Source: Myxococcaceae bacterium
GTDB lineage: Bacteria > Myxococcota > Myxococcia > Myxococcales > Myxococcaceae
Direction: 5' to 3'
NCBI GenBank assembly: GCA_047602415.1
Contig: JASGHH010000001.1
Location: 3,671,166 to 3,735,165, forward strand
Length of the DNA stretch: 64,000 bases
Under the pieces are notes generated by a model. That model saw nothing but the letters and a program-made list of their open reading frames with translations, had not been told where the DNA came from and did no database searches. The translations under genes were made by a program, and so were the position numbers. Shown here piece by piece: positions 2,764-41,680 of this stretch (position 1 is its first letter; each line of letters starts with the position of its first letter).

Positions 2764-3945
2764 ATGGGACGCAGAGTGAACGTGATTGGCGTGGGGATGG
2801 TGAAGTTTCAGAAGCCGGGCGCTTCTGACCCCTACGAGGTGATGGCCGGCAGCGCGATCAAAGACGCGATGAAGGACGCCGGCGTCGACTTCAAGGAGGT
2901 CGAGCAGGCGTACGCGGGCTACGTGTACGGCGACTCGACCTGCGGTGAGCGCGCGGTCTACGGCGTCGGGCTGACCGGCATTCCGGTGCTCAACGTGAAC
3001 AACAACTGCTCCACCGGCTCGTCGGCGCTCTACCTGGCGCGGCAGGCGGTCGAGGGCGGCATCGCGGAGTGTGTGCTCGCCGTCGGCTTCGAGCAGATGG
3101 AGAAAGGCGCGCTCAACTCGAAGTACACCGACCGCACCAACCCGCTCGATCAGCACGTCAACGTGATGAACAAGGTGCAGGGCTTCAACTCGGCACCTCC
3201 GGCGGCGCAGATGTTCGGCGGCGCGGGCCGCGAGTACCGGTGGAAGTACGGCACCAAGCGCGAGACCTTCGCCAAGATCTCCGAGAAGGCGCGCAAGCAC
3301 GCCTCGAAGAACCCGTACGCGCTGTTCCGCGAAGTGCTGAGCGTGGACCAGATTCTGGCGAGCGACGAGGTGTTCGACCCGCTCACCCGCTTCCAGTGCT
3401 GCCCGCCGACCTGCGGCGCGGCGGCGGCGATCGTCTGCTCCGACGAGTTCGCGAAGAAGAAGGGCATCTCGAAGCCGGTGTTCATCGCCGCGCAGTCGAT
3501 GAAGAGCGACTTCCCGACCGCGTTCGAAGACTCGATGATCAAGATGTGCGGCTTCGACATGGCGGCCGCGGCGGCGAAAGAAGCGTACGAGAAGGCCGGC
3601 GTGGGCCCGAAAGACGTCGACGTGATCGAGCTCCACGACTGCTTCACCGCCAACGAGCTGCTCACCTATGAGGCGCTCGGGCTGGCGGCCGAGGGCACCG
3701 CCGAGAAGATGGTCTGGGACAACGACAACACCTACGGCGGCAAGTGGGTGACCAACCCGTCGGGCGGTCTGCTCTCGAAGGGCCACCCGCTCGGGGCCAC
3801 CGGGCTCGCGCAGTGCACCGAGCTGGTGTGGCACCTCCGCGGTCAGGCGGGCGAGCGCCAGGTGCCGAACGCGAAGGTCGCGTTGCAGCACAACATCGGG
3901 CTCGGCGGCAGCTGCGTGGTGACGATCTACAAGCGCACGGCGTGA
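2764..3945 (+). CDS. SCPx-type (nonspecific lipid-transfer protein) 3-ketoacyl-CoA thiolase
   Basis: 393 aa, thiolase fold with active-site Cys context (NNNCSTGSSAL) and C-terminal GHPLGATG. RBS-like gagag upstream. Immediately downstream of MFE-2. Confidence 0.85.
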   Translation: MGRRVNVIGVGMVKFQKPGASDPYEVMAGSAIKDAMKDAGVDFKEVEQAYAGYVYGDSTCGERAVYGVGLTGIPVLNVNNNCSTGSSALYLARQAVEGGIAECVLAVGFEQMEKGALNSKYTDRTNPLDQHVNVMNKVQGFNSAPPAAQMFGGAGREYRWKYGTKRETFAKISEKARKHASKNPYALFREVLSVDQILASDEVFDPLTRFQCCPPTCGAAAAIVCSDEFAKKKGISKPVFIAAQSMKSDFPTAFEDSMIKMCGFDMAAAAAKEAYEKAGVGPKDVDVIELHDCFTANELLTYEALGLAAEGTAEKMVWDNDNTYGGKWVTNPSGGLLSKGHPLGATGLAQCTELVWHLRGQAGERQVPNAKVALQHNIGLGGSCVVTIYKRTA

Positions 3946-4971: not shown

Positions 4972-5774
4972 AGCTCGATCTGCGGTGGGAACGTGTGGTG
5001 TGGCCGCGGAAAAGTGGCGGCCCAGGCGGCGAGCTCGACCTGGAACGAGATCGGCCGCAGCACGAGAACTTCGATCGCCGCGGCGACGACCCGTAGAACC
5101 ACCCCGACCATTTCGGGCGCATGAATTCTGCCGTGCTTGATGAACGAGGCCGGCCAGCCGATCAGAATCTCTGCCAGCAACAGCACCAGCATCACCAACG
5201 CCAGGCGAAGCCAATGGGGCTTCGTACGCCGCCACGAGTCGCGCAACGTGTCGAGCGGGCCGGTCTTCTCGAGCAACACGATCGGGATCGCCGGCAACAA
5301 GATGCCACCCGCGATCGGAGCTCCGATGCAGGTGCAGAGCATCACGGTGGCCGAGATCTGCTCGACCAGGTTCACCAACATCATCGGGAGCAGCCGGGGC
5401 AACGTTTGCCGCCACGCCACCCGGTGACCCGCGGCACCCCCGAGCAATCGGTTGGCGGCGAAGCGAATTGAAAACGCCTCCGCGATCGAGCCTGCCAGCA
5501 CCGAATACGCGACCAGCCCGTAGACCGGCACGTCCCAGTTCCACATGATCGCTTCGCGCGGCAGGTAGATCAGCAGCACGATCGGCAGCGTCGCCCACCA
5601 GGTGGCGCGCATCGCGCGAAAGGTCGTCTCGAAGATTCCCCCGAACGTCGGTTTGGCTTCTTCGAGAGCTCCACGGGTGAGCTCCATGCACGGCTGGCAG
5701 AGCGACCGCCACTCACTGACCGCCAGTGGAGCAAACGTGCCGCAGCGGGGACAGGGCGTGGCGGCCGGGCTCAC
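4953..5774 (-). CDS. Membrane protein with N-terminal zinc ribbon (CPRCG...CQPC) and about 6 TM helices, hypothetical
   Basis: GTG start at 5774. Hydrophobic segments throughout. The larger overlapping ORF 4633..5712 is Arg-rich and rejected. Confidence 0.55.
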   Translation of the reverse strand: MSPAATPCPRCGTFAPLAVSEWRSLCQPCMELTRGALEEAKPTFGGIFETTFRAMRATWWATLPIVLLIYLPREAIMWNWDVPVYGLVAYSVLAGSIAEAFSIRFAANRLLGGAAGHRVAWRQTLPRLLPMMLVNLVEQISATVMLCTCIGAPIAGGILLPAIPIVLLEKTGPLDTLRDSWRRTKPHWLRLALVMLVLLLAEILIGWPASFIKHGRIHAPEMVGVVLRVVAAAIEVLVLRPISFQVELAAWAATFPRPHHTFPPQIELQPTAR

Positions 5775-5937
5775 GCGGCCAGCAAAGCACGCGCGTTACT
5801 TTTCAGTAATCAGGCCCGAGAGCGGTTTGCGCGCCGCCCGGTTCAGCGTGACAATTTCATCTGTACGCAGAGCCCAACGCCGCCTCGAGCCATGGTGACC
5901 CGGACGACGCAGCTCCACACGTCCGCCTGGGTGCCCA

Positions 5938-6372
5938 ATGAAGCCGGTGATCGAACTGCTGCAGAACAAACCGATTCAGACCATTTTCGCCGTCGAACCC
6001 GAGACGAAGGTGATCGAAGCCGCGCAGATGATGGCCGAGCACAACGTCGGTGCGCTGCTGGTGATGCGCGGTGAGCAGATCGTGGGCATCGTCAGCGAGC
6101 GCGACTACGTGCGCCGCATCGCCGCCTCCGAGCGCTCACCCCACGACACCACCTGCGAGGAGATCATGACCCGCCAGGTGAAGACGGTGACCCCCGACAC
6201 CTCCGACGAAGAGTGCATGGCGCTGATGACCCACGGCCGCCTGCGCCACCTGCCCGTGGTCGCTCAAGGGCAGGTGATCGGGGTGATCTCGATCGGCGAC
6301 CTGGTGAAAGACATCATTCACGAGCAGCAGTTCGTGATCGAGCAGCTCAGCCACTACATCATCGCGGGCTAG
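5938..6372 (+). CDS. CBS-domain pair protein
   Basis: 144 aa with two CBS motifs (VGALLVM..GIVSERD; GRLRHLPVV..GVISIGD). Confidence 0.85.
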   Translation: MKPVIELLQNKPIQTIFAVEPETKVIEAAQMMAEHNVGALLVMRGEQIVGIVSERDYVRRIAASERSPHDTTCEEIMTRQVKTVTPDTSDEECMALMTHGRLRHLPVVAQGQVIGVISIGDLVKDIIHEQQFVIEQLSHYIIAG

Positions 6373-6373
6373 C

Positions 6374-6847
6374 TCAGCGCGCGCACTTGCCGCTGCGGCA
6401 CGAGCCTCCGCCGCAGTCGCGGTCGGAGCCACAGGTGCCGTCGGGCGCGTTGGCGCACTTGCCGCTGCGGCACGAGGCGCCGCCACAGTCGCGGTCGGAG
6501 CCGCACGACGAGCCCGGCGCGGTCGCGCACTTGCCGCTCCGGCAGGCCGCGCCGCCGCAGTCGGAGTCGGAGCCGCAGCTGCCGCCCGCCGCCGCGCACT
6601 TCCCGCTCCGGCACGAACCGCCGTTGCAGTCGCGGTCGGAGCCGCAGGTGCCGTCGGGCGCGTTGGCGCACTTGCCGCTGCGACACGAGGCGCCTCCGCA
6701 GTCGCGGTCGGAGCCACACGACGAGCCGGGCGCGGTGGCGCACTTGCCGCTTCGGCAGGCCACCCCGCCTCCGCAGTCGGAGTCGGACCCGCAATCGGCC
6801 CAGGCGCTCAACGAAAACAACGACATCGCGACGATCAGAGTTTTCAT
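6374..6847 (-). CDS. Secreted cysteine-rich tandem-repeat protein (8 repeats of about 20 aa: CGSDxDCGGxxCRSGKCAxAPxG)
   Basis: Signal peptide MKTLIVAMSLFSLSAWA then 8 near-identical 3-Cys units. The DNA shows about 60/120-bp periodicity. Confidence 0.7.
   Translation of the reverse strand: MKTLIVAMSLFSLSAWADCGSDSDCGGGVACRSGKCATAPGSSCGSDRDCGGASCRSGKCANAPDGTCGSDRDCNGGSCRSGKCAAAGGSCGSDSDCGGAACRSGKCATAPGSSCGSDRDCGGASCRSGKCANAPDGTCGSDRDCGGGSCRSGKCAR
6380..6800. repeat. Coding tandem repeat, about 60-bp unit x8 (120-bp super-period)
   Basis: Repeated gccgctgcggcacgaggcgcc... and gtcgcggtcggagcc... motifs. Both strands give periodic ORFs. Confidence 0.7.
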
Positions 6848-8492: not shown

Positions 8493-8842
8493 AGAAGCGC
8501 CTCGCCATCGCAGCGCTCGTCCTCGCCGCCTGCACGGTGAAGCCCGAGCCACGCCCGGTCGACGAGCGGCAGCTGCTGCAGAAGGTCGCGCAGCTGCCGA
8601 TCTCCACCTGGAGCTACCAGTGGCAACCGGAGCGCCGTCACCTCGGCCCGATGGCGCAGGACTTTCACGCCGCGTTCGGCCTCGGCGACAGCGAGCGCAC
8701 CTACGACCCGCGCGACGCCGACGCGGTGACGCTCGCTTCGCTCAAGGCGCTCTCGCAGCTGGCCGACGAGCAGGACCGGCGAATCGCCACGCTGGAAGCA
8801 CAGAACGCAGCTCTGAGAGCGCGACTGGCGGTTGCGAAGTAA
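8489..8842 (+). CDS. Small lipoprotein consisting essentially of a stand-alone intramolecular-chaperone (peptidase S74-like) domain
   Basis: GTG start overlaps the upstream stop (GTGA). Lipobox LAAC. ISTWSYQWQ...HLGPMAQDFHAAFG...ASLKALSQLADEQDRRIATLEAQNAALRARL. Confidence 0.6.
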   Translation: MKKRLAIAALVLAACTVKPEPRPVDERQLLQKVAQLPISTWSYQWQPERRHLGPMAQDFHAAFGLGDSERTYDPRDADAVTLASLKALSQLADEQDRRIATLEAQNAALRARLAVAK

Positions 8843-9692
8843 GCTGCCGCCGCCCGTGCGAGCCCCCGTCTTTGCGTCGTTGCTGCTCCTCTGCTGCACC
8901 ACCGTCGAGCGTGAAGGCCCTCGGCTGTCGGTCGAGGAGCTCTCGCGCGAGTGCCACGACACTTTGGTGAAGGGCACGATGGAGCGCGGCTCCAACAAGA
9001 ACCTCCACCTGAAGCTGAGCGCCGAGGCGAGCTGCAAGGTGGCCGAGGCCAGCACCGTCACCACCGAGCGCTACCACCAGACCTACGTGCTCACCTTCGC
9101 GATCGCGCTCGTGTCGGCGGTGGCGGTGGCGATTCCCACCGCGATCGGCGGAGGCATGCTCGGCACCGCGGTGAGCGACTCCAAGGGAGCCAAGGCCACC
9201 GGCGCCACGCTCGGAGTGCTGCCCGGCATCGCGGTCGGCCTCGCCGTCGCCGCCGGAGTTCCTCCGCTGGAGACGCGGGTCGAAGACGGCCAGCCGAAGC
9301 AGGTCGAGCACGAGGTGGTGAGCGAGAACAAGCGCGCGCCCGGCGGCATGCTGCGGGTGGCGGGCGACACTCAACACTTCTGGGTGCTGGAAGACGGCAA
9401 GGCGGCGATCCCGCTGGCCGACGCGGTGAAGGTGAAGCTGTCGAAGCTGACCTTCGACGAGGTGCCGGTGCAGCTCGACGCCGCCGGCAACACCCTCGAT
9501 CTCTCGCTCGACCCGTGCCGCGAAGCGCTCGACGGCTTCAAGCCGACCGAGGCGCCGGTCTGCCCCGACGCCGCCAACAAGCTCGCCGCTGCCAAGCAGT
9601 GCAACAAGAACGGCTGGGACCTCGCGCTGCCGGTGGAAGCGAAGTTCGGCGCCGTGCACTGCGCGCCAGTAGTAGATGGCGGAACACTCTGA
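8832..9692 (+). CDS. Hypothetical secreted/lipoprotein
   Basis: Hydrophobic N-terminus (VFASLLLLCCTT), central Gly/Ala-rich hydrophobic stretch. Stop overlaps the next start (ATGA). Confidence 0.5.
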   Translation: MRSKLPPPVRAPVFASLLLLCCTTVEREGPRLSVEELSRECHDTLVKGTMERGSNKNLHLKLSAEASCKVAEASTVTTERYHQTYVLTFAIALVSAVAVAIPTAIGGGMLGTAVSDSKGAKATGATLGVLPGIAVGLAVAAGVPPLETRVEDGQPKQVEHEVVSENKRAPGGMLRVAGDTQHFWVLEDGKAAIPLADAVKVKLSKLTFDEVPVQLDAAGNTLDLSLDPCREALDGFKPTEAPVCPDAANKLAAAKQCNKNGWDLALPVEAKFGAVHCAPVVDGGTL

Positions 9693-10084
9693 TGTTCACC
9701 TGGTTGATTCGTACCGCAGTGGTCGCCCTCTACCCCCGCGCCAGCTGGCCGGGCGTCGAAGACTGCGACCTCGACGGCTTTCTCACCCGCTTTCGCGAAG
9801 AGACCCCGCCGCTGATCTGGCTCGGCACGGTGATGGGCGCGGTGGTGTTTCACCTCACTCCGGTGCTGACCGTCTTTCTGCCGGTGCCCGCGTTCGTGTT
9901 GCCCAAGCGCCTGCTCGATCTCCACGCGCAGCGCATCACCGCCACCAACGTCTACCTGCTCCGCCAGGCGATCTTCCTGGTGAAGATGGCAGCCGGGTTT
10001 TGCTGGGGCACCGACCCGAAGATTCGCGCCCGGCTGGCGCTGCCTCCGCTGCCGGCCGACCCCGGCACCTGGAGGGTCGATTGA
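9692..10084 (+). CDS. Small membrane protein, hypothetical, translationally coupled to the GMC oxidoreductase
   Basis: MFTWLIRTAVVALYP... with 2-3 TM helices. The ATG shares an A with the upstream TGA. The alternative-frame N-terminal extension of ORF 9676 is Arg-rich junk. Confidence 0.5.
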   Translation: MFTWLIRTAVVALYPRASWPGVEDCDLDGFLTRFREETPPLIWLGTVMGAVVFHLTPVLTVFLPVPAFVLPKRLLDLHAQRITATNVYLLRQAIFLVKMAAGFCWGTDPKIRARLALPPLPADPGTWRVD

Positions 10085-31067: not shown

Positions 31068-32933
31068 CTACTGCCGGCCGTTCACCGGAGCGGCAGCCAC
31101 CACCGGCGCCTTCGCGCCCGCGTCTGCCTTCTGCGCCACCGGGACGAGCAGCCGCCCCAGCATCGCGGTGGCCAGCCCATCGCTGCCACCACCCGACTGA
31201 ACCGCCACCTCGGGCACCAGCTTCACGTGGTGCTCGCCCAACGCAGTGGCCAGCTGCAGCGCCGAGTACGCGTCTTGGCCCATCGCCTCGACGCCGGCCT
31301 TGAAGGCCTCCGCCTTCGCCGCACCGACCACCTTCAGCTGCGCCGCCTCGGCCTCGCCCTTGATCCGCATCGCGTGGGCTTCCGCCTCGGCCTCCAACCG
31401 CACTCGCGCAGCCTGGCCCTTCGCCTGCTCGGCGGCCGCCAACGCGTTCTTCGCGCTGATCGCCACCATCTGCTCCGAGCGAACGACCTCACCCTGCATG
31501 TTCGCGATCGACGTCTCGCGCTCGAGCTGCTGGCGGTTGACCTGCGCCGCCCGCTGAACCTCGTACGTCCGCTGGAGCTCCTCGGCGATCTTCCGGTCGG
31601 TCTGAGTCTTCATCAGCTCCGCCGGAGGCACGATGTCGCCAATCAGGGTGTCGATGCACTCCACGTCGTACGCCTCGACCGCTTGCTTGATCGCGTCGAA
31701 CGCCTCCTTCTGGCGCTCACTGCGCGCCGAGAGGAACTCCAGCACCGTGTAGTGCTGCGCCGAGTTCCTGAAGTAGTTGGCCACCGTCGGCTGCAACACG
31801 TGATCGACCAGGTTCTGCATCGACCCCACCCGCGAGATGACCCGCGGCGCCGACTTCATCCCCACGTGAATGATCTCCGACACGTCCAGCGAGAAGCTGA
31901 ACCCGTCTTTGCTCCGCACCAGCACCGACGAGAGCTTCTCGTCGTAGTGATGCGCCTCCACGCGGTTCGCCCAGTTCAGGACGATGTTGGTCGTCGGTAC
32001 CAGCTCGACCTTCATCACCCTGGTGTTGATCGGGTGCTTGCCCGGGAGCAGCGGCTCGATCCACACGCCTTTGTGGCCCTTCGCCACCAGGTCGCCGTGA
32101 GTGAACTCATCGCCGCTCAGGTCGATGTGCTCCCGACCGACGTAGCTCACCACCACTCCGACGTAGCCGATCGGAACCTCGGTCATCGGAACCTGCTCGA
32201 CCTGCACGAACCAGGGGTTCAGGTTCCACGAGCCGGCAAGAAGCACCTGCTCCTGCAACCCGCGACACCCGGTCGCGTCGATGAAGGCCTGGCCACGCTG
32301 GAAGTTGTCGTGGCCCACCACTTCGGGCCCCGCCAGGTCTCCAGAGGGGATCGGCTTGCCATCGAGCGCGGTGACGATGCCCACCCGATCGGGCCTCACC
32401 TCGTAGACGGAGAGCTCCGCCTGCGAGACGTCGAAGTGATCGGCGTTGTGAGTCGTCACCACCTGAAACAGCGACGGGTTGATCCGGTAGGTGCCCGAGG
32501 TCAGAAAGGCGAGCTGACGCCCCTTCTCGCCGCCGTTCTTGAGGAACAGCCGCGCGTTCTGGAAGTCGTCGCACTCCACCTCCTGCCCCAGAATCCGCTC
32601 CGACGGAATCGCGTCTCCATCGGCCGCCACAACCAGCGCGATCTCACCCGGCCGCACCGTCAGCACCGGCACCTTGATCACCTTGTACTTCCAGCGCCAA
32701 AGCCCGAAGTGCCAACCTGGCGAGAGCATGTCGGCCTGGTAGCCGGCCTCTCCCTCGAGGGCGATCAGCCGCCCCGCGGGCAAAGACCGCCCGAACTTCT
32801 TCACCACCAGCCCCGACTCGTTCTCTTTGATCACCACCAGGCTCAGCCGGGTGACGAACCAGATCGCGAACGAAACCGCGAACGCGCCCGTCAGCACCCA
32901 GTGCTCCCTCAGTTGGTTCAATAGAAGCTCCAT
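31068..32933 (-). CDS. Flotillin-like SPFH/band-7 domain protein (YqiK/FloT-like), 621 aa
   Basis: N-terminal TM, SPFH domain, long Ala/Glu-rich coiled-coil (EAEAEAHAMRIKGEAEAAQLK). Confidence 0.85.
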   Translation of the reverse strand: MELLLNQLREHWVLTGAFAVSFAIWFVTRLSLVVIKENESGLVVKKFGRSLPAGRLIALEGEAGYQADMLSPGWHFGLWRWKYKVIKVPVLTVRPGEIALVVAADGDAIPSERILGQEVECDDFQNARLFLKNGGEKGRQLAFLTSGTYRINPSLFQVVTTHNADHFDVSQAELSVYEVRPDRVGIVTALDGKPIPSGDLAGPEVVGHDNFQRGQAFIDATGCRGLQEQVLLAGSWNLNPWFVQVEQVPMTEVPIGYVGVVVSYVGREHIDLSGDEFTHGDLVAKGHKGVWIEPLLPGKHPINTRVMKVELVPTTNIVLNWANRVEAHHYDEKLSSVLVRSKDGFSFSLDVSEIIHVGMKSAPRVISRVGSMQNLVDHVLQPTVANYFRNSAQHYTVLEFLSARSERQKEAFDAIKQAVEAYDVECIDTLIGDIVPPAELMKTQTDRKIAEELQRTYEVQRAAQVNRQQLERETSIANMQGEVVRSEQMVAISAKNALAAAEQAKGQAARVRLEAEAEAHAMRIKGEAEAAQLKVVGAAKAEAFKAGVEAMGQDAYSALQLATALGEHHVKLVPEVAVQSGGGSDGLATAMLGRLLVPVAQKADAGAKAPVVAAAPVNGRQ

Positions 32934-33095
32934 GACCCACTCCTTTCGTTGTGGAGGGGTGCAAGAGCATCAGCGGTGCCACCCCCCAAACGGCCGTGGT
33001 CAGGTCACCGGCGGTCGCGCCCCGTGATTCAACTGTCGGCAAACGCGATTTGAATCACGCCGAGCCAGAGGCGGGGTTGGGAGTACAGTGCGCCC

Positions 33096-33299
33096 ATGCC
33101 GGACGAACCGAAGAAGCCGCCTCCGCCGCCGAATCCGTTCCTGGCGAACATTCTCAGAAACGCCAAGGCGGCACCGAAGCACGGCGTCGCCGCGGCCGGG
33201 CTCGAGACGCGGGTGTGCAGCAAGTGCGGCGCCGCCCGGGCCGAAGGCTCCGACCTCACCGTCTGCGAGTACTGCGGCGGCTCGTTCAAGGAGAGCTGA
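33096..33299 (+). CDS. Small zinc-ribbon protein (CSKCG...CEYCG)
   Basis: 67 aa. Stop overlaps the next ATG (ATGA). Confidence 0.5.
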   Translation: MPDEPKKPPPPPNPFLANILRNAKAAPKHGVAAAGLETRVCSKCGAARAEGSDLTVCEYCGGSFKES

Positions 33300-34048
33300 T
33301 GGCGGAGGACCCGCGCGCGCGGTGGTCGGCGTTTCTGGAGAAGATCGAGGCCCGCCACGGCGAGCTGCTCACGGGCGCCCGGGAGTCGCTGCCGGGGCTG
33401 GTGCCCGACTCCGGCTACGAGCTGTCGCCGTTCAGCAATGCGCTCACCGCGATTCGAACCCAGTGCATCGGGCTGTCGCAGAAGATCGATCAGACCTGGT
33501 CGCAGTCGGCGTGCGCTGCGATCGAGGGCGCCGGGCTCGACTCGAACGCCGAGCGGGCCAGGGGCGACGCGTGCTCCAAGCGCATGGCGCACGCGCTCAA
33601 GCGCGCCGAGGTCGAGATCTCCGCCGCGGCGGCGAACGTGGTGTGCGATCTGGCAAAGCAGACGCTGGCGAAAGACTTCAAGTGCACCCGCTGTGGCGCG
33701 CCGCTGAGCCCGAAGCAGAGCTTCTTTCGCTCGCATTACGTGCCCTGCCAGTTCTGCCAGTCGATGAACACCTTCGAGCCGGGCATGGTCGCCCGCCAGG
33801 TGGAGCACTTCGCGGTGCACGCGCTCGCCGAAGGAGCCGCGCTCGACGAGCAGCTCGCGTTTCTCGCCGGTGAAGAGCGGTACCGCGAGCGGCACTCGAC
33901 GGTGAGCAAGGAAGCGCTGGTCGCGCTCTACGAGGCCTACGTCGACGCCTACCTCGCCGAGCGGGTCCGGCTGCTGCCTGATCTGGCGGCCGATCTCGAC
34001 AAAGATCGACACGCGAAAGTGAGCGCATTCGTTTACAGCATCGCCTGA
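33299..34048 (+). CDS. Hypothetical protein with C-terminal zinc ribbon (CTRCG...CQFC)
   Basis: 249 aa, high GC3 frame. N-terminal extension from 32951 rejected. Confidence 0.55.
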   Translation: MAEDPRARWSAFLEKIEARHGELLTGARESLPGLVPDSGYELSPFSNALTAIRTQCIGLSQKIDQTWSQSACAAIEGAGLDSNAERARGDACSKRMAHALKRAEVEISAAAANVVCDLAKQTLAKDFKCTRCGAPLSPKQSFFRSHYVPCQFCQSMNTFEPGMVARQVEHFAVHALAEGAALDEQLAFLAGEERYRERHSTVSKEALVALYEAYVDAYLAERVRLLPDLAADLDKDRHAKVSAFVYSIA

Positions 34049-34070
34049 CGTTGCCTACCGTCCGGCCACC

Positions 34071-35252
34071 ATGACCGATCCCAAGACGAGCAAGGCGTTG
34101 GCGGATGCGCAGCGCGCCAAAGAAGCGAACCAGCGCGAGCGTGACGCGAAGATCGCCGAGGCGATCGAGGGCCCGCGGTACCACAAGTTTTCCGACTACG
34201 ACAACAGCCCCCAGGGCCAGAAGGCGATCTCTCAAGGCATCGCCAACAAGCAGGGCGCGCCGTACGACTACCTGAAGTCGAAGGGCGCCAACTTCAACTG
34301 GCCCGACCTCGACCCGGCGTCGATCGGCAACCTCGAGCCCTGGCTCTGCTACGCCAAGGGCGGAGGGTGGAAGGACCTCAACGCGGTCGCCAACGGCGCC
34401 GAGCGCCGGGGCATGGCGGCCTACCGCACCCTGGGCGACGTCGAAGGCCCGACCTTCAACAAGGTGATCGACGACTCGACCTTCGCGCTGATCTCCAAGA
34501 TGCAGGCGATGTCTGACGCCGAGCTGGCGACGCAGGGGCCGCCGGCCGGTCTGAAGAAAGACGCGCGCTACAGCTACCGCGACTACCTGATGGGCATCAA
34601 GCTGGAGTGCGAAGACGCGCTCCGCCGGGCCAACAAGAAGGGCCAGGCCGCGCTCGACGCCGCGATGGCGCACGACAAGAAGCAGATGGACGGGCACATC
34701 GCCGCCGCGAAGTCGGGCGGGCTGCTCGACCCGGTGCAGGGCGTGACGATGGAAGACTGGGCGGGCGCGAACGCGAAGCTCGCCGCCGGTGAGCCGCTCG
34801 CCAACGTGCTCAAGGTGCTGCAGATCGAGAAGCCGGCGTGGGACGCGATCTCCGCGGAGTGGATGGGCCGGATGTCGCGCGACACCACCTTCGCCATCTC
34901 CACCGTCTACGGCGGCGCGTTCACCAACCCGAACATCGGCCGGTTCGCGGCGGGCGGGGGCGCGGCTGCTCCGAAACCCGCGGCAGGTGGAGCGCTCGAC
35001 AAGGTGCTGGGCGACTTCGAGCTCTACGTGAAGATCATGACCCACCAGAGCGTGGGCGCGGGCCAGGGCCTCGACGCGGCCGCGATTCTGAAGAAGTACG
35101 GCCTCAGCGTTGCCGACTGGGCCAAGGTCGGCATGCACTGGGGCACCAAGATGACCACCGACATGGCGCTCGCCACCAAGATGGGCGGGCTGATGCAGAA
35201 GTACACCGCCGAGCTGTCGGCTCCGGGCGCGGGCGACGACATCAACTTCTGA
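34071..35252 (+). CDS. Hypothetical cytoplasmic protein, 393 aa
   Basis: Clean ORF with RBS-like upstream. Stop overlaps the cytochrome ATG (ATGA). Confidence 0.55.
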   Translation: MTDPKTSKALADAQRAKEANQRERDAKIAEAIEGPRYHKFSDYDNSPQGQKAISQGIANKQGAPYDYLKSKGANFNWPDLDPASIGNLEPWLCYAKGGGWKDLNAVANGAERRGMAAYRTLGDVEGPTFNKVIDDSTFALISKMQAMSDAELATQGPPAGLKKDARYSYRDYLMGIKLECEDALRRANKKGQAALDAAMAHDKKQMDGHIAAAKSGGLLDPVQGVTMEDWAGANAKLAAGEPLANVLKVLQIEKPAWDAISAEWMGRMSRDTTFAISTVYGGAFTNPNIGRFAAGGGAAAPKPAAGGALDKVLGDFELYVKIMTHQSVGAGQGLDAAAILKKYGLSVADWAKVGMHWGTKMTTDMALATKMGGLMQKYTAELSAPGAGDDINF

Positions 35253-36199
35253 TGTTTCAGGCGGTCGCGTTCATTCTCGCGGCGAGCCCGCTGCTGTTCG
35301 GCGAGGCGCGCGCTCCGTTGCCGGTGGAGGCCGACTCCACCGCGCAGCAGTGCGGCGTCTGTCACGCCGAGGCGCTCGAGAAGTGGCAGCACTCGATGCA
35401 CGCTCTCGCCACCAGCAACGAGCTGTACGTCGTCTCGCACCGCCGCGAGCCGATGAAGTGGTGCGACGACTGCCACGCGCCCAACCGCCTCGGTGAGCAG
35501 GGCAAAGCCGAAGGCGTGTCGTGCGCGGCCTGTCACGTGCGGGCCGGCGTGGTGCTCACCGCGCATGCACCGACCAGGAAGGGCCAGGAGTGCCACCCGA
35601 TGCGGGAGGAGCCGGCGCTGGCGGGCAACCAGGTCTGCGCCGAGTGCCACCAGTTCAACTTTCCCGCCGGGCGGGCAGATCCCGTTCGGTACGGCCCGTG
35701 GCCGATGCAGAACACTGCCGAGGAGTCGAAGGGCGCCGCGTGTGGCAGCTGTCACGATGCGCATTCGCCGAACGGAGCCCACGACGTCGAGGCGCTGCGC
35801 AAAGCGATCGTCGCCACGGCCTCTCGGGACGGGGACGCGGTGAAGGTGCGGGTGTCGACGGTGGGCGTGAGCCATCACCTGCCGACCGGAGATCCCAACC
35901 GGCGCATTCGCGTCGAGCTCTGCTCCGACGAGTCGTGCCTGGGCGCGGTGGCGTCACGCGAGCTGGAGCGCCGGGCGCAGGTCTCTGGCGATTCCTGGCG
36001 CATCTCGAGCGACACCACCGTCGGGCCGAGCGGTCTCACCCTCACCTTTCCCGGTGTGCCCGAGGTTCAGTGGGTGCGTCTGAGTTACCGGTACGCCGCG
36101 CGGAGCAACGAGAACGCGCTCGCTCCGGAGCAGGTCGAAGCCTGGTTGAACACGATTCCAATCAAGCCCGAGGTCGGGGCTGTCGGGGGTGCGCGATGA
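35252..36199 (+). CDS. Periplasmic pentaheme c-type cytochrome
   Basis: Signal peptide MFQAVAFILAASPLLFGEARA. Five CxxCH motifs (CGVCH, CDDCH, CAACH, CAECH, CGSCH). Confidence 0.75.
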   Translation: MFQAVAFILAASPLLFGEARAPLPVEADSTAQQCGVCHAEALEKWQHSMHALATSNELYVVSHRREPMKWCDDCHAPNRLGEQGKAEGVSCAACHVRAGVVLTAHAPTRKGQECHPMREEPALAGNQVCAECHQFNFPAGRADPVRYGPWPMQNTAEESKGAACGSCHDAHSPNGAHDVEALRKAIVATASRDGDAVKVRVSTVGVSHHLPTGDPNRRIRVELCSDESCLGAVASRELERRAQVSGDSWRISSDTTVGPSGLTLTFPGVPEVQWVRLSYRYAARSNENALAPEQVEAWLNTIPIKPEVGAVGGAR

Positions 36200-36999
36200 G
36201 ACGTTGGGTCTGGTTACTTCTGCTGTGGAGTGCGCCGGCGTTCGCCGGTCGAGTCGAGCTCGACGACGATGACCTCCAGAGCGCTCTCGGGTGGACCCAG
36301 GACAGCCGATACTTCGCGTGGGCGGGCCAGAAGAGCTGGGGCTACTGGGACGTCTCGACGGCGTCGGCGAAGCAATTCCAGGATCAGAGCGGCAAGGACA
36401 AGTGGCTCGAAGCGCACCCTCTGGCGCCCAAGAGAACAGGCCGCAAAGGCCCCAATGGAGCGATCGCCGAGGTGGTGATCACCAAGAACGATCGCCCTGG
36501 CAAGTGGGACGAGAAGAAGGCGGAGTGGACCCCCGAGGGCTACGCGGGCTCCGAGCTTCGGGTCTCGCGCGGAGGCAAGAGCTACATCTCCGTCGACTGG
36601 TTCTCGAGCGTGGACAACGTCACGCCGTATTGGTCGGAGGACGGCCGCCGGGTGGTCTGGGAGTTGTCCGAAGGCGGGGCGATGCGTCCCGTGCTCTACG
36701 ACACGCTCTGCTTCGGCACCGGCGGGTTTCCCCGGGTGCACGTCTTGGGTGACCCGACGCTGTTGAAGACGCGGGCGCCCGCGGTCAGGACTGCACTCGA
36801 CGCGCAGGGCTTCGTGACCCTCTACGTGGGGAAGTCGCTCAAGTCGCGCGACGCGACGGTCGTCTACGCGGCCGACGGGATGGAGGCGGAAGCAGCGAAG
36901 GCGGCGAAGGCCATCGGTGGCGCGAAGATCGAGAAGCTGAACTGGGTGGTCGACGCCGACCTGGTGGTGGCGCTCGGCGCCGACAAGGGGGTGAAGTGA
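36196..36999 (+). CDS. Secreted protein with C-terminal LytR_C-like domain (paralog of the next gene)
   Basis: Signal peptide MRRWVWLLLLWSAPAFAG. C-terminal ...AKAIGGAKIEKLNWVVDADLVVALGADKG. ATGA overlap with the cytochrome stop. Confidence 0.55.
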   Translation: MRRWVWLLLLWSAPAFAGRVELDDDDLQSALGWTQDSRYFAWAGQKSWGYWDVSTASAKQFQDQSGKDKWLEAHPLAPKRTGRKGPNGAIAEVVITKNDRPGKWDEKKAEWTPEGYAGSELRVSRGGKSYISVDWFSSVDNVTPYWSEDGRRVVWELSEGGAMRPVLYDTLCFGTGGFPRVHVLGDPTLLKTRAPAVRTALDAQGFVTLYVGKSLKSRDATVVYAADGMEAEAAKAAKAIGGAKIEKLNWVVDADLVVALGADKGVK

Positions 37000-37859
37000 T
37001 GAAGACGATCAGCGTGGCAGCGATGCTGTTCGCAAGCCTGGCGATGGCCGAGCCGTACCCCGAGTGGGTCGACGAGCTCCGCGGTGTGACGGCCGACGGC
37101 CGCTACCTGGTGTGGGTGGGCAAGGCCAGCGACGGAGAAACGGCCCTCACCTATCAAGTGGTCGAAGACATGATGCTCGGCAGCCACATTGCGTATCGGC
37201 AGGCAGACCCGGGCGATCTCCTCGACTCGCTGACACCGCAGGAGGCTCCTCATGGGCCTGCCGCGTTCCGGAAGTGGCTCGCGGCCCACCCGATCAAGCC
37301 GTTGATCGTCGACCGGAGCTCGCCCGACCACAAGCGGGTCGCCGACGTGGAAGTCAAAGCGGGAACAGGCTCCTGGGCCGGCGACTCCTTCAGCTCCGAC
37401 GGCACGGTGGGCTGCTCGCTGCTGGTGCGTCACGACGGAACGGCCGACGAGGTCGGGTTCTCCGGCAGCGGAGACGCGGTCTCGGTCGCTTGGTCTCCCG
37501 ATGGCAAGCACACCATCTGGGTCGTGCACCGCCGCGGCCGCTCGATCCGTGACGAACCCTCCGACGAGTTGGTGATCGGCACCGACGGCAGCCCGGCGGT
37601 CGCGGTGTTGGCGCCGAGGGCGAAGATGGGCCCCGCGAAGGACGTCGCCGAGAAGCTGGCCAAGGCCGGCTTCGAGGTGGGTTCGCTCGCGCCGATGATG
37701 AAGCCGCGCGACAAGAGCGTGGTGTTCGGCGCCAAGAACCAGCTCGAGCTGGCGAAGAAGGTCGCCGCTGCCGTCCCCGGCGGCGCCACCGTCGAGGCGC
37801 TCACCTGGCACACGCCCTTCGACGTGGTGGTGGCGCTTGGGCCCGACGCGCTGAAGTAG
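36999..37859 (+). CDS. Secreted protein with C-terminal LytR_C-like domain
   Basis: Signal peptide MKTISVAAMLFASLAMA. C-terminal AKDVAEKLAKAGFEVGSL...VEALTWHTPFDVVVALGPD. ATGA overlap with the upstream stop. Confidence 0.6.
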   Translation: MKTISVAAMLFASLAMAEPYPEWVDELRGVTADGRYLVWVGKASDGETALTYQVVEDMMLGSHIAYRQADPGDLLDSLTPQEAPHGPAAFRKWLAAHPIKPLIVDRSSPDHKRVADVEVKAGTGSWAGDSFSSDGTVGCSLLVRHDGTADEVGFSGSGDAVSVAWSPDGKHTIWVVHRRGRSIRDEPSDELVIGTDGSPAVAVLAPRAKMGPAKDVAEKLAKAGFEVGSLAPMMKPRDKSVVFGAKNQLELAKKVAAAVPGGATVEALTWHTPFDVVVALGPDALK

Positions 37860-37874
37860 GTACATTCGCCGCCG

Positions 37875-38480
37875 ATGGCCGACGAAGCCGACTACCTGGT
37901 CAGCGCCGCCTACGTCGACGAGATGCTCAAGCCGATCAAAGCGGCCGGGCACTTCGAGGCGTTGCTGGCCGAGCTCGGCCCGCGAACGAGCCAGATGGTC
38001 CTCCAGCCGTGGAGCGAACCGTTCCACCCGGCGGCGCTCACCGAATCGCTCGGCGAGCACATCGTGAAGATCGCCGGCGAGGAGTTCTACGCCGAGATGA
38101 CCTACCTCACGGTGAAGAACAAGTTCGGGCCGATTCTGCTGCCGCTGATGTCGACCACGGTGAAGAAGGGCTCGCCCGCCGGCTTCTTCAGCCGCCTCGA
38201 GGGCCTGGTCGACGCCGCGATCAAAGGCGTCACCATGCGCTGGGACAAGAAGTCGGAGCTCAACGGCACCCTCTGGGTGTTCTACCCGCGGGTGGTGTCG
38301 CCGGTGGTGGAGCACAGCTGGCGCGGCGTGATTCGTTTCATCTACGAGCTCACCCAGCGGCCGGGAAAGGTCGACGCCTTTCAGATCACCGCCGCCGGCA
38401 ACGCGCTCGAGTACCGCTTGTCGTGGCCCGCGGCGGAAGAGCCGAAACCCGCCCCGCCGGCGCCTCCTCATAAAAAGTGA
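37875..38480 (+). CDS. Hypothetical protein, likely the myxobacterial paralogous DUF2378/TIGR02265-like family
   Basis: 201 aa. Architecture similar to the 57073..57705 gene in this window. Confidence 0.45.
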   Translation: MADEADYLVSAAYVDEMLKPIKAAGHFEALLAELGPRTSQMVLQPWSEPFHPAALTESLGEHIVKIAGEEFYAEMTYLTVKNKFGPILLPLMSTTVKKGSPAGFFSRLEGLVDAAIKGVTMRWDKKSELNGTLWVFYPRVVSPVVEHSWRGVIRFIYELTQRPGKVDAFQITAAGNALEYRLSWPAAEEPKPAPPAPPHKK

Positions 38481-38525: not shown

Positions 38526-38966
38526 ATGCGCGTTCGCCACATCGCGACCGAGAAGAAGGTCTACGACGCCGACTTCGCCTGCGCGGCGTGCGGCTACAAA
38601 GCCAAGGTGCAGGTGCTCGGCGTCGGAGTCGGCTCCGCTTCGGAGGGCCTGTTCGAGAGAGGCGCCGCGAGCGACGCGGTGATCGAAGCGCGGGCGAACA
38701 TCTCGGCCGACGTGCTGCGCTCGCTCGAGCTGGTGCGCTGTCGCAAGTGCGGCACCCGAAAGGGAATCAAGAAGTGGTCGGTGCAGGCCTGGTTGACCAG
38801 CGCGGCGTTCGCGTACGCCCTGGTGTGGATCGCCGAGAAGTTTCTGCCCGAGCCGTGGTTGCTCGCTCCGGGTCTGCTGCTGGTGCCGGCGATCTACTGG
38901 GTCTACTTCCGCCCGATGCTGCGGGTGGTCGACGAGCGGGTGAGCTTTCCCAGCCGGGGCTGGTGA
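38526..38966 (+). CDS. Zinc-ribbon plus 2-TM small protein, hypothetical
   Basis: CAACG...CRKCG, then hydrophobic helices. Confidence 0.5.
   Translation: MRVRHIATEKKVYDADFACAACGYKAKVQVLGVGVGSASEGLFERGAASDAVIEARANISADVLRSLELVRCRKCGTRKGIKKWSVQAWLTSAAFAYALVWIAEKFLPEPWLLAPGLLLVPAIYWVYFRPMLRVVDERVSFPSRGW

Positions 38967-40351: not shown

Positions 40352-41676
<1,325 letters not shown>

Positions 41677-41680
<4 letters not shown>

Follow-up and report, generated by a model that had tools for sequence, protein, structure and literature searches.

Do seven closely packed genes on one strand encode one system or several? This question is raised by a chain of genes, g1 to g7, at positions 33096-38480 (plus strand) of a 64,000-nt stretch of DNA from a Myxococcaceae genome with a GC content of 67%; the whole stretch is called the window here. 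A reading made from the sequence alone had described the chain as one uncharacterised extracytoplasmic redox or envelope module around a pentahaem cytochrome c. The chain is a mosaic. Module A consists of g1-g2-g3, and module B is the cassette g4-g5-g6, 2.6 kb in length, which lies exactly between the stop codon of g3 and the start codon of g7. The genes of the chain and the extent of the cassette are as follows.

33096..33299, plus strand, g1: 67-aa zinc-ribbon protein, CSKC...CEYC
33299..34048, plus strand, g2: 249-aa helical protein with a central zinc ribbon, CTRC...CQFC
34071..35252, plus strand, g3: 393-aa cytoplasmic protein with a C-terminal DUF6620 domain
35252..36199, plus strand, g4: 315-aa exported pentahaem c-type cytochrome, predicted PHC fold
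36196..36999, plus strand, g5: 267-aa secreted protein, PD40/TolB-like partial beta-propeller and C-terminal LytR_C domain
36999..37859, plus strand, g6: 286-aa paralog of g5, three predicted propeller blades and LytR_C domain
37875..38480, plus strand, g7: 201-aa lineage-restricted orphan, directly after g3 in relatives that lack the cassette
35253..37888, plus strand, g4-g5-g6 cassette: insertion/deletion unit, delimited by blastn collinearity and junction sequences

The seven consecutive open reading frames (ORFs) are real by their GC content at third codon positions (0.86-0.93), which is of coding type for a genome of 67% GC, and an NCBI protein identical to g4 (QM723_17100) is present in a Myxococcaceae metagenome-assembled genome. 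ATGA overlaps had been said to join six of the genes. In fact four of the six junctions overlap, three of them as TGATG (g1/g2, g3/g4 and g5/g6, the last also readable as GTGA), and only g4/g5 is a true ATGA. Gaps of 22 nt and 15 nt separate g2 from g3 and g6 from g7, respectively. Overlaps of 4 nt are also present elsewhere in this high-GC window, for example at 41680/41677 and 44129/44126. Start/stop overlaps are enriched in the chain, yet unexceptional for this window.

The arrangement of the chain was compared with that of related loci, designated by L and a number. At the DNA level L169 shares 91-93% identity with the window, and it has the gene order flotillin / g1 g2 g3 g7 g8 / convergent gene. 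Window positions 35253-37888 are missing from it, and the stop codon of g3 is followed by GCTCC and then by the ATG of g7. L086, which is 85-89% identical to the window, is without g4-g6 and also without g8; in both of these cassette-free loci 4-5 nt lie between the g3 stop and the g7 ATG. The full seven-gene chain is present in L172 (SRR27977642), a product of the sequencing project that also yielded L169 (SRR27977633). The flanks of L172 and L169 differ by a synonymous divergence (dS) of 0.016-0.07, with amino-acid identities of 98-100%. Between the window and L172, dS is 0.47-0.75 in the cassette and 0.15-0.32 in the flanks, and the amino-acid identity is 88% for g4, 66-67% for g5 and g6, and 91-98% for the flanks. 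The ratio of nonsynonymous to synonymous divergence (dN/dS) in this comparison is 0.14 for g4, 0.34 for g5 and 0.41 for g6, and does not exceed 0.16 in genes other than g5 and g6. Because the synonymous divergence of the cassette is 2-3 times that of its flanks, the cassette has its own evolutionary history, and close relatives have gained, lost or exchanged it. The start/stop overlap of g3 and g4 is thus a by-product of the position of the cassette and not evidence of shared function. L171, a more distant relative, keeps only the flotillin gene, g7 and a sigma-54 activator. Since g1-g6 and g8 are absent from L171, the locus is plastic and a hot spot of gene turnover.

The same separation of the two modules was seen in a wider sample, which comprised 85 loci around g4 relatives, from genomes and metagenomes, and 80 metagenomic loci around g3 relatives. 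No homologs of g0 (the flotillin-like gene divergent from g1), g1, g3, g7 or g8 were found in the 85 cytochrome loci, and g2 gave a single marginal match there (E 8.6e-5, 21.5 bits). Conversely, g4, g5 and g6 homologs were not found in any of the 80 g3 loci. In these, ORFs resembling g2 adjoin the g3 homolog in 52 and ORFs resembling g1 in 31; the arrangement is either g1-g2-g3 or g3-g1-g2. As g1- and g2-like neighbours recur beside g3 and the cytochrome never does, g1-g2-g3 is an independent cytoplasmic trio, conserved in many bacteria, that excludes the cytochrome. Co-conservation across genomes had been proposed as the check on the seven-gene unit, and the unit is not co-conserved in either set. 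Thus there is no seven-gene system; the finding behind it is real but was over-extended.

The cytochrome of module B was assigned to a family by profile comparison. The g4 product carries exactly five CxxCH motifs, at aa 34, 71, 91, 129 and 164, behind a hydrophobic N-terminus, in agreement with the proposed pentahaem cytochrome with a signal peptide. These motifs are invariant in 40 aligned homologs, and no other ORF of the window has more than one CxxCH. An N-terminal five-haem helical domain is followed by a C-terminal immunoglobulin (Ig)-like beta-sandwich with a long hairpin, which is the PHC fold. The profile of the 40-sequence family matched two structures in the PDB, the low-potential pentahaem cytochrome c552 (LPC) of Thermochromatium tepidum (5ZE8, E 3.8e-32) and MccSep/ExtKL of Geobacter sulfurreducens (GSU2937-2936; 9WT8, E 1.5e-18). 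By these matches g4 is a compact member of the pentahaem PHC superfamily to which both belong. The scores of g4 against other cytochrome families stayed below the cut-offs: for NrfB 14.8 bits with TIGR03146 (cut-off 166.6) and 12.4 bits with PF22678 (cut-off 27), for c554 15.4 bits with PF13435 (cut-off 20.8), and for the NCBIfam model of ExtKL 14 bits (cut-off 250). The suspicion that g4 might match a well-known family was therefore unfounded for NrfB and c554, yet the pentahaem c552/MccSep family does take it in. Among species-representative genomes at least 546 relatives of g4 were confirmed by tblastn, and the best 80 of these are mostly from Myxococcota, with Leptospiraceae and Nitrospirota. 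With these relatives, g4 belongs to a large uncharacterised PHC clade. The description of the locus as a mosaic that carries a PHC-type cytochrome is, as a whole, held with high confidence.

MccSep is a periplasmic polysulfide reductase of Geobacter, a homotetramer that has a substrate channel. Its haems 1, 3, 4 and 5 have bis-His ligation, haem 2 is ligated by His and Cys239, and the active site is completed by a selenocysteine, Sec325 (U325), which the Ig-like domain contributes; both U325 and C239 were shown to be essential (bioRxiv 10.1101/2025.11.18.688581). In the 40-sequence alignment of the g4 family, four extra His residues are available for the five haems, of which H50, H171 and H208 are invariant and H115 is nearly invariant. 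In the region that corresponds to the active site of MccSep, Gln153, Thr155, Glu158, Asp214 and Arg217 are invariant. HMMER aligns GHSIPDG-U325 of MccSep with GHxxPTG-D214 of the family, and an Asp is present at this position in nearly all 85 cytochrome loci. The stretch of g4 that separates haem motifs 4 and 5 contains no Cys, and the c552 motif PLCQT is aligned by HMMER with PMQNT of g4, which contains the invariant Q153. The residue that corresponds to C239 of MccSep is most likely Gln153, as judged from the C/Q-x-T pattern bridged through c552. On these alignments g4 lacks the two traits that define MccSep enzymes, the Sec/Cys at U325 and the distal Cys at C239. Since the Cys and Sec of MccSep are replaced by Gln and Asp, this family probably uses the PHC fold for a different chemistry.

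Two further features of the family were recorded. At Cys114-His115 (window positions 35591-35596) g4 has ECHPM, as against AHP in the family consensus, so that an extra Cys stands beside a predicted haem-ligating His. A role of Cys114 as an extra haem ligand was rejected, as the family has Ala there. In the Nitrospira clade, members of the family with Asp at the active-site position have a gene for a two-domain rhodanese on their 3' side (Pfam E 3e-33) and a histone-deacetylase-family gene on their 5' side (L051, L073, L076, L078-L081 and L083; for example L078 9179-10051). This neighbourhood hints at a link to sulfur for the Nitrospira subclade.

The partners of the cytochrome in the cassette are g5 and g6. 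They are paralogs (30% identity, E 3e-21) with AxA-type signal peptides on both, and they score 23.6 and 28.5 with Pfam PF13399 (LytR_C), the gathering score being 22.2; in this the sequence-only reading, which had named two paralogous secreted LytR_C proteins, was correct. No match to a LytR-CpsA-Psr (LCP) catalytic domain was found in either protein, and a beta-propeller fragment lies N-terminal to LytR_C. The model of g6 (predicted local distance difference test score, pLDDT, 89.3) has about three four-stranded blades and then an alpha/beta domain. The profile of the g5/g6 family matches PD40 blades both in acyl-peptide hydrolase (E 5e-9) and in TolB (E 7e-5). The proteins are not TolB itself: about three blades are accommodated in a chain of ~200 residues, and one or two PD40 repeats were matched. 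Only M1, R237, V241, V242, A256, G262, W270 and G281 are invariant in the family. Because no Cys or His is conserved in it, g5 and g6 are predicted not to be redox-active, and to serve as non-redox adaptors. They are fast-evolving, as seen from their dN/dS.

Genes of the g5/g6 type adjoin the cytochrome in 12 independent loci (L001, L003, L005, L006, L007, L008, L010, L011, L012, L016, L020 and L172), in most cases overlapping by 1 or 4 nt, with the partner on either side. All loci whose cytochrome shares at least 39% identity with g4 are among these 12, and such partners adjoin only the closest g4 relatives. As the sequence-only reading had held, the module is not a standard respiratory operon. 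Of the proposed extracytoplasmic module, the association of the cytochrome with LytR_C-type secreted proteins was retained, and the zinc-ribbon proteins, g3 and g7 were dropped as partners. Literature searches found nothing on LytR_C together with a multihaem cytochrome, nor on a pairing of a cytochrome with g5/g6-type proteins. In L005 a gene for a 477-aa NapC/NirT-like cytochrome (5063-6496) follows the cytochrome, g5-like and g6-like genes, and its product is a candidate quinol-dehydrogenase donor. The gene upstream of the cytochrome in L009 was not counted as a partner; all that it shares with g5/g6 is an N-terminal GW(S/T)xD..F motif, with an hhalign probability of 12%.

In other, more distant Myxococcota subclades of the cytochrome the partner is different. 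The cytochrome is paired in L004, L015, L017 and L019 with a secreted protein of ~230 aa that contains the motif DLDGDGKPE and whose C-terminus is weakly SH3_3-like. In 17 loci (including L034, L039 and L053) it is accompanied by a secreted F5/8-type-C 'NADase_transloc' protein of ~500 aa (E 4e-18 to 5e-20). These partners fit a pattern in which the cytochrome is combined with a variable binding adaptor. When neighbouring ORFs were clustered all against all, antisense shadow ORFs of high-GC genes prevailed, and only clearly separate clusters were used; in the g3 loci this clustering merged everything into one cluster.

The cassette is best read as an accessory periplasmic redox module, composed of a PHC active-site variant and non-redox adaptors. 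As c-type haem attachment requires export, g4 is taken to be exported. Its product would undergo Sec-dependent export and haem attachment and would then act in the periplasm, like MccSep. By analogy with that enzyme, the exposed haem 1 would be the entry point for electrons, which would then reach haem 2 via haems 3 and 4. H50, H115, H171 and H208 would provide for four bis-His haems. At haem 2, the distal Cys of MccSep would be replaced by Gln153 and the catalytic Sec by Asp214, beside Arg217. This haem is probably open or weakly ligated in g4 and may act on a small substrate other than polysulfide; a peroxide or a nitrogen oxide could be suggested by way of speculation, either of which would fit the aerobic Myxococcaceae. 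The three-bladed halves predicted for g5 and g6 may pair into a TolB-like six-bladed unit, and their LytR_C domains may attach to the cell envelope and thereby hold the cytochrome in place. The LytR_C domains, like the SH3-like and discoidin-like domains of the partners in other clades, suggest by analogy a binding to envelope polymers. Taken as a whole, this mechanism of a catalytic haem with adaptors is tentative, and its chances are put at somewhat less than even. It is doubtful, though conceivable, that the large g4 family is a new, 'Asp-type' class of periplasmic PHC enzymes with a Gln/Asp/Arg pocket at the catalytic haem, tethered in Myxococcota to the envelope by a split propeller/LytR_C heterodimer of g5 and g6, as a strain-variable accessory trait. 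The best explanation overall, a two-module mosaic with an accessory periplasmic PHC-variant cassette and its adaptors, is held with moderate confidence.

Several observations weigh against this explanation. Haem ligation, catalysis and the contact between g4 and g5/g6 are predictions from sequences and models, and the models contain no haems. In the HMMER alignment the C239 loop of MccSep is shifted by five residues, and the equivalence of C239 and Q153 is drawn from the x-x-T motif. The N-terminus of g4 is without a basic n-region. No electron donor and no second cytochrome are encoded in the 64-kb window. More distant g5/g6-like proteins are present without a cytochrome in L167 and L168, and the fast evolution of g5 and g6 could reflect relaxed constraint. 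Gln153 is adjoined by Met152, which is common in the Myxococcota clade, other members having A, L or I there; this Met could give a His/Met-ligated haem 2 and make g4 a pure electron carrier.

The main rival builds on this last point. According to it, g4 is not an enzyme but a periplasmic electron carrier or store, or a nanowire-like polymer, with g5 and g6 as anchoring or assembly factors. Such a role would agree with T. tepidum c552, to which no function is assigned, with the structural comparison of PHC proteins to archaeal cytochrome nanowires (PMC11976967), with a His/Met haem completed by Met152, and with L005, where the cassette is followed by the gene for the NapC/NirT-like quinol dehydrogenase. 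Five invariant residues (Gln153, Thr155, Glu158, Asp214 and Arg217) are indicative of a conserved pocket rather than of a mere ligand, and the window encodes no outer-membrane porin and no further multihaem cytochrome, that is, no porin-cytochrome conduit of the Mtr/Pcc/Ext type. The carrier role, possibly with His/Met152 ligation, is a possibility to be kept in mind, with a probability of the order of one in several. A function as a polysulfide or sulfur reductase of the MccSep type could be argued from the profile homology, the shared five-haem and Ig-like architecture and the rhodanese genes that adjoin members of the wider clade in Nitrospira. The two residues essential in MccSep are absent from g4, however, with an invariant Asp for U325 and, by motif alignment, a Gln for C239, and the host family, the Myxococcaceae, is typically aerobic. 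This function is considered most improbable.

Two other explanations concern the locus rather than the haem pocket. The presence/absence polymorphism and the raised dN/dS of g5 and g6 might be attributed to a neutral or decaying passenger without current function. Against this, the three ORFs are intact in two genomes whose cassettes have diverged to a dS of ~0.5-0.75, the dN/dS values are well below 1, and all haem motifs and pocket residues are retained; a mere passenger would be very surprising. In the other, all seven genes form one extracytoplasmic redox or envelope system in which the zinc-ribbon and DUF6620 proteins work with the cytochrome. The genes do lie on one strand throughout, four of the six junctions overlap, no plus-strand terminator-like site was found inside the chain, and L172 shows the same seven-gene order. 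L172, however, is closely related to the organism of the window and does not constitute independent evidence. The two gene sets never occur together in 85 and 80 independent loci, g1-g2-g3-g7 is intact without g4-g6 in L169 and L086, and g4-g6 are exported while g1-g3 are without signal peptides. One system of seven genes is thus highly unlikely, and the mosaic with an accessory redox cassette remains the favoured explanation.

Module A and its surroundings include the following additional features, the last of which lies beyond the range covered by the sequence-only reading.

31068..32933, minus strand, g0: 621-aa flotillin-like SPFH/Band_7 protein, divergent from g1; Pfam Band_7 E 6e-24
33024..33058, inverted repeat, candidate operator: perfect 9-bp arms GTGATTCAA-N17-TTGAATCAC in the g0/g1 divergent intergenic region
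38526..38966, plus strand, g8: 146-aa zinc-ribbon protein, CAAC...CRKC, with C-terminal hydrophobic helices

The proposed 67-aa zinc-ribbon protein (g1) was confirmed, and so was the zinc ribbon of g2, although it is central (C129...C153) and not C-terminal as had been stated. The g3 product has the length of 393 aa given for a cytoplasmic unknown, but its C-terminal half matches a family, Pfam PF20325 (DUF6620), with 59.9 bits against a cut-off of 27, over profile positions 267-450 of 450 only. The relatives of g3 form 306 representative clusters. They align mostly over residues ~200-393, a domain of ~190 residues, and have varied N-termini. A PDB profile search with g3 returned only coiled-coil noise, and literature searches on DUF6620 found nothing. 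An ORF of 393 aa at 2764-3945 was rejected as a g3 relative; it is equal in length and unrelated in sequence. None of g1-g3 has a signal peptide, and no obvious transmembrane segment is present in g1 or g2. An SPFH gene of the YdjI type (Band_7_1 and SHOCT) is present in 9 of the 80 g3 loci, between the g2- and g3-like genes or after them (L090, L091, L094-L097, L099, L103 and L105; for example L091 4978-5979). By analogy with B. subtilis pspA-ydjGHI, the zinc-ribbon/DUF6620 trio may constitute a membrane module associated with SPFH proteins. The position of g0 is conserved in L169 and L172; g0 is context of the g1-g3 module and lies outside the cytochrome cassette. A PADLOC search with g0-g3, g7 and g8 gave no match to a defence system beyond a trivial likeness of zinc ribbons to Cas12.

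The products at the other end of the chain are restricted to the lineage. A DUF2378-like protein had been proposed for g7; no match to DUF2378/TIGR02265 was found in Pfam or NCBIfam even at E<=1. Only seven close homologs of g7 were found, and none of the seven has a Pfam domain. The g8 gene is itself an indel. The window and L169 carry it, but L086 does not, and there the stop codon of g7 directly adjoins the convergent gene. Both g7 and g8 are lineage-specific additions. With respect to regulation, the AT-rich inverted repeat at 33024-33058 is a probable operator. It is identical in L169 and partly retained in L172, in a spacer that otherwise varies. A scan for promoters and terminators, which is uninformative for Myxococcota, found no sigma-70-like site and no plus-strand terminator, and a sigma-54 consensus scan of the g0/g1 spacer gave one weak minus-strand match only. 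A sigma-54-dependent activator is encoded at window positions 40352-41680, ~2 kb downstream of the chain, and in L171 the gene of such an activator (8604-9941) directly follows the g7-like gene.

What is new here is an active-site variant of a recently characterised cytochrome family, together with a partner architecture that is not characterised experimentally. The one member of known function with the PHC pentahaem fold, MccSep (2025), depends on a Cys-ligated haem and a selenocysteine. The g4 clade is a much larger sister clade in which an invariant Gln/Asp pair is found in place of both residues, and the PHC fold is probably in use there for a different chemistry, in aerobic predators instead of sulfur respirers. 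The strains represented by L172 and L169 differ at this locus in the cassette only, and hence offer a natural knock-out comparison. The over-extended operon call is corrected, in that a start/stop overlap made by an insertion is no evidence of shared function, and the trio of two zinc-ribbon proteins and a DUF6620 protein is defined as independent and frequently SPFH-linked.

Among known systems, module A resembles the membrane-stress operon pspA-ydjGHI (samGHI) of B. subtilis, in which a zinc-ribbon protein is encoded with a cytosolic Band_7-family SPFH protein (PMC9239133, PMC8581546). The likeness is an analogy drawn from gene content, a zinc-ribbon gene with an SPFH gene. No equivalent of PspA or YdjH was seen in module A, and YdjG is a membrane protein, unlike g1 and g2. 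The propellers of TolB/PD40 proteins have six blades and a TolB N-terminal domain, whereas g5 and g6 have about three blades without that domain. The LytR_C domain known from Mycobacterium tuberculosis structures (6Q10, 2M5Y) is the domain type of g5 and g6, here without the LCP catalytic domain.

For the cytochrome, the sPHC and lPHC proteins of cable bacteria and PtdA (ptdABCDEFG) are accompanied by porins, globin domains or additional multihaem proteins. None of them is reported with LytR_C/propeller partners, and they are set apart from g4 by their descriptions. The c552 of T. tepidum is ~120 residues longer than g4; its Cys corresponds to Gln153 and its Ala to Asp214 of g4. MccSep/ExtKL belongs by profile to the same superfamily. 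Unlike it, g4 is not surrounded by a porin-cytochrome gene cluster, and the catalytic U325 and the haem-ligating C239 are Asp and Gln, respectively, in g4. The cap-and-stem architecture of MccSep, with four bis-His haems and a special haem 2 in a pocket closed by the Ig-like loop, is likewise predicted for g4.

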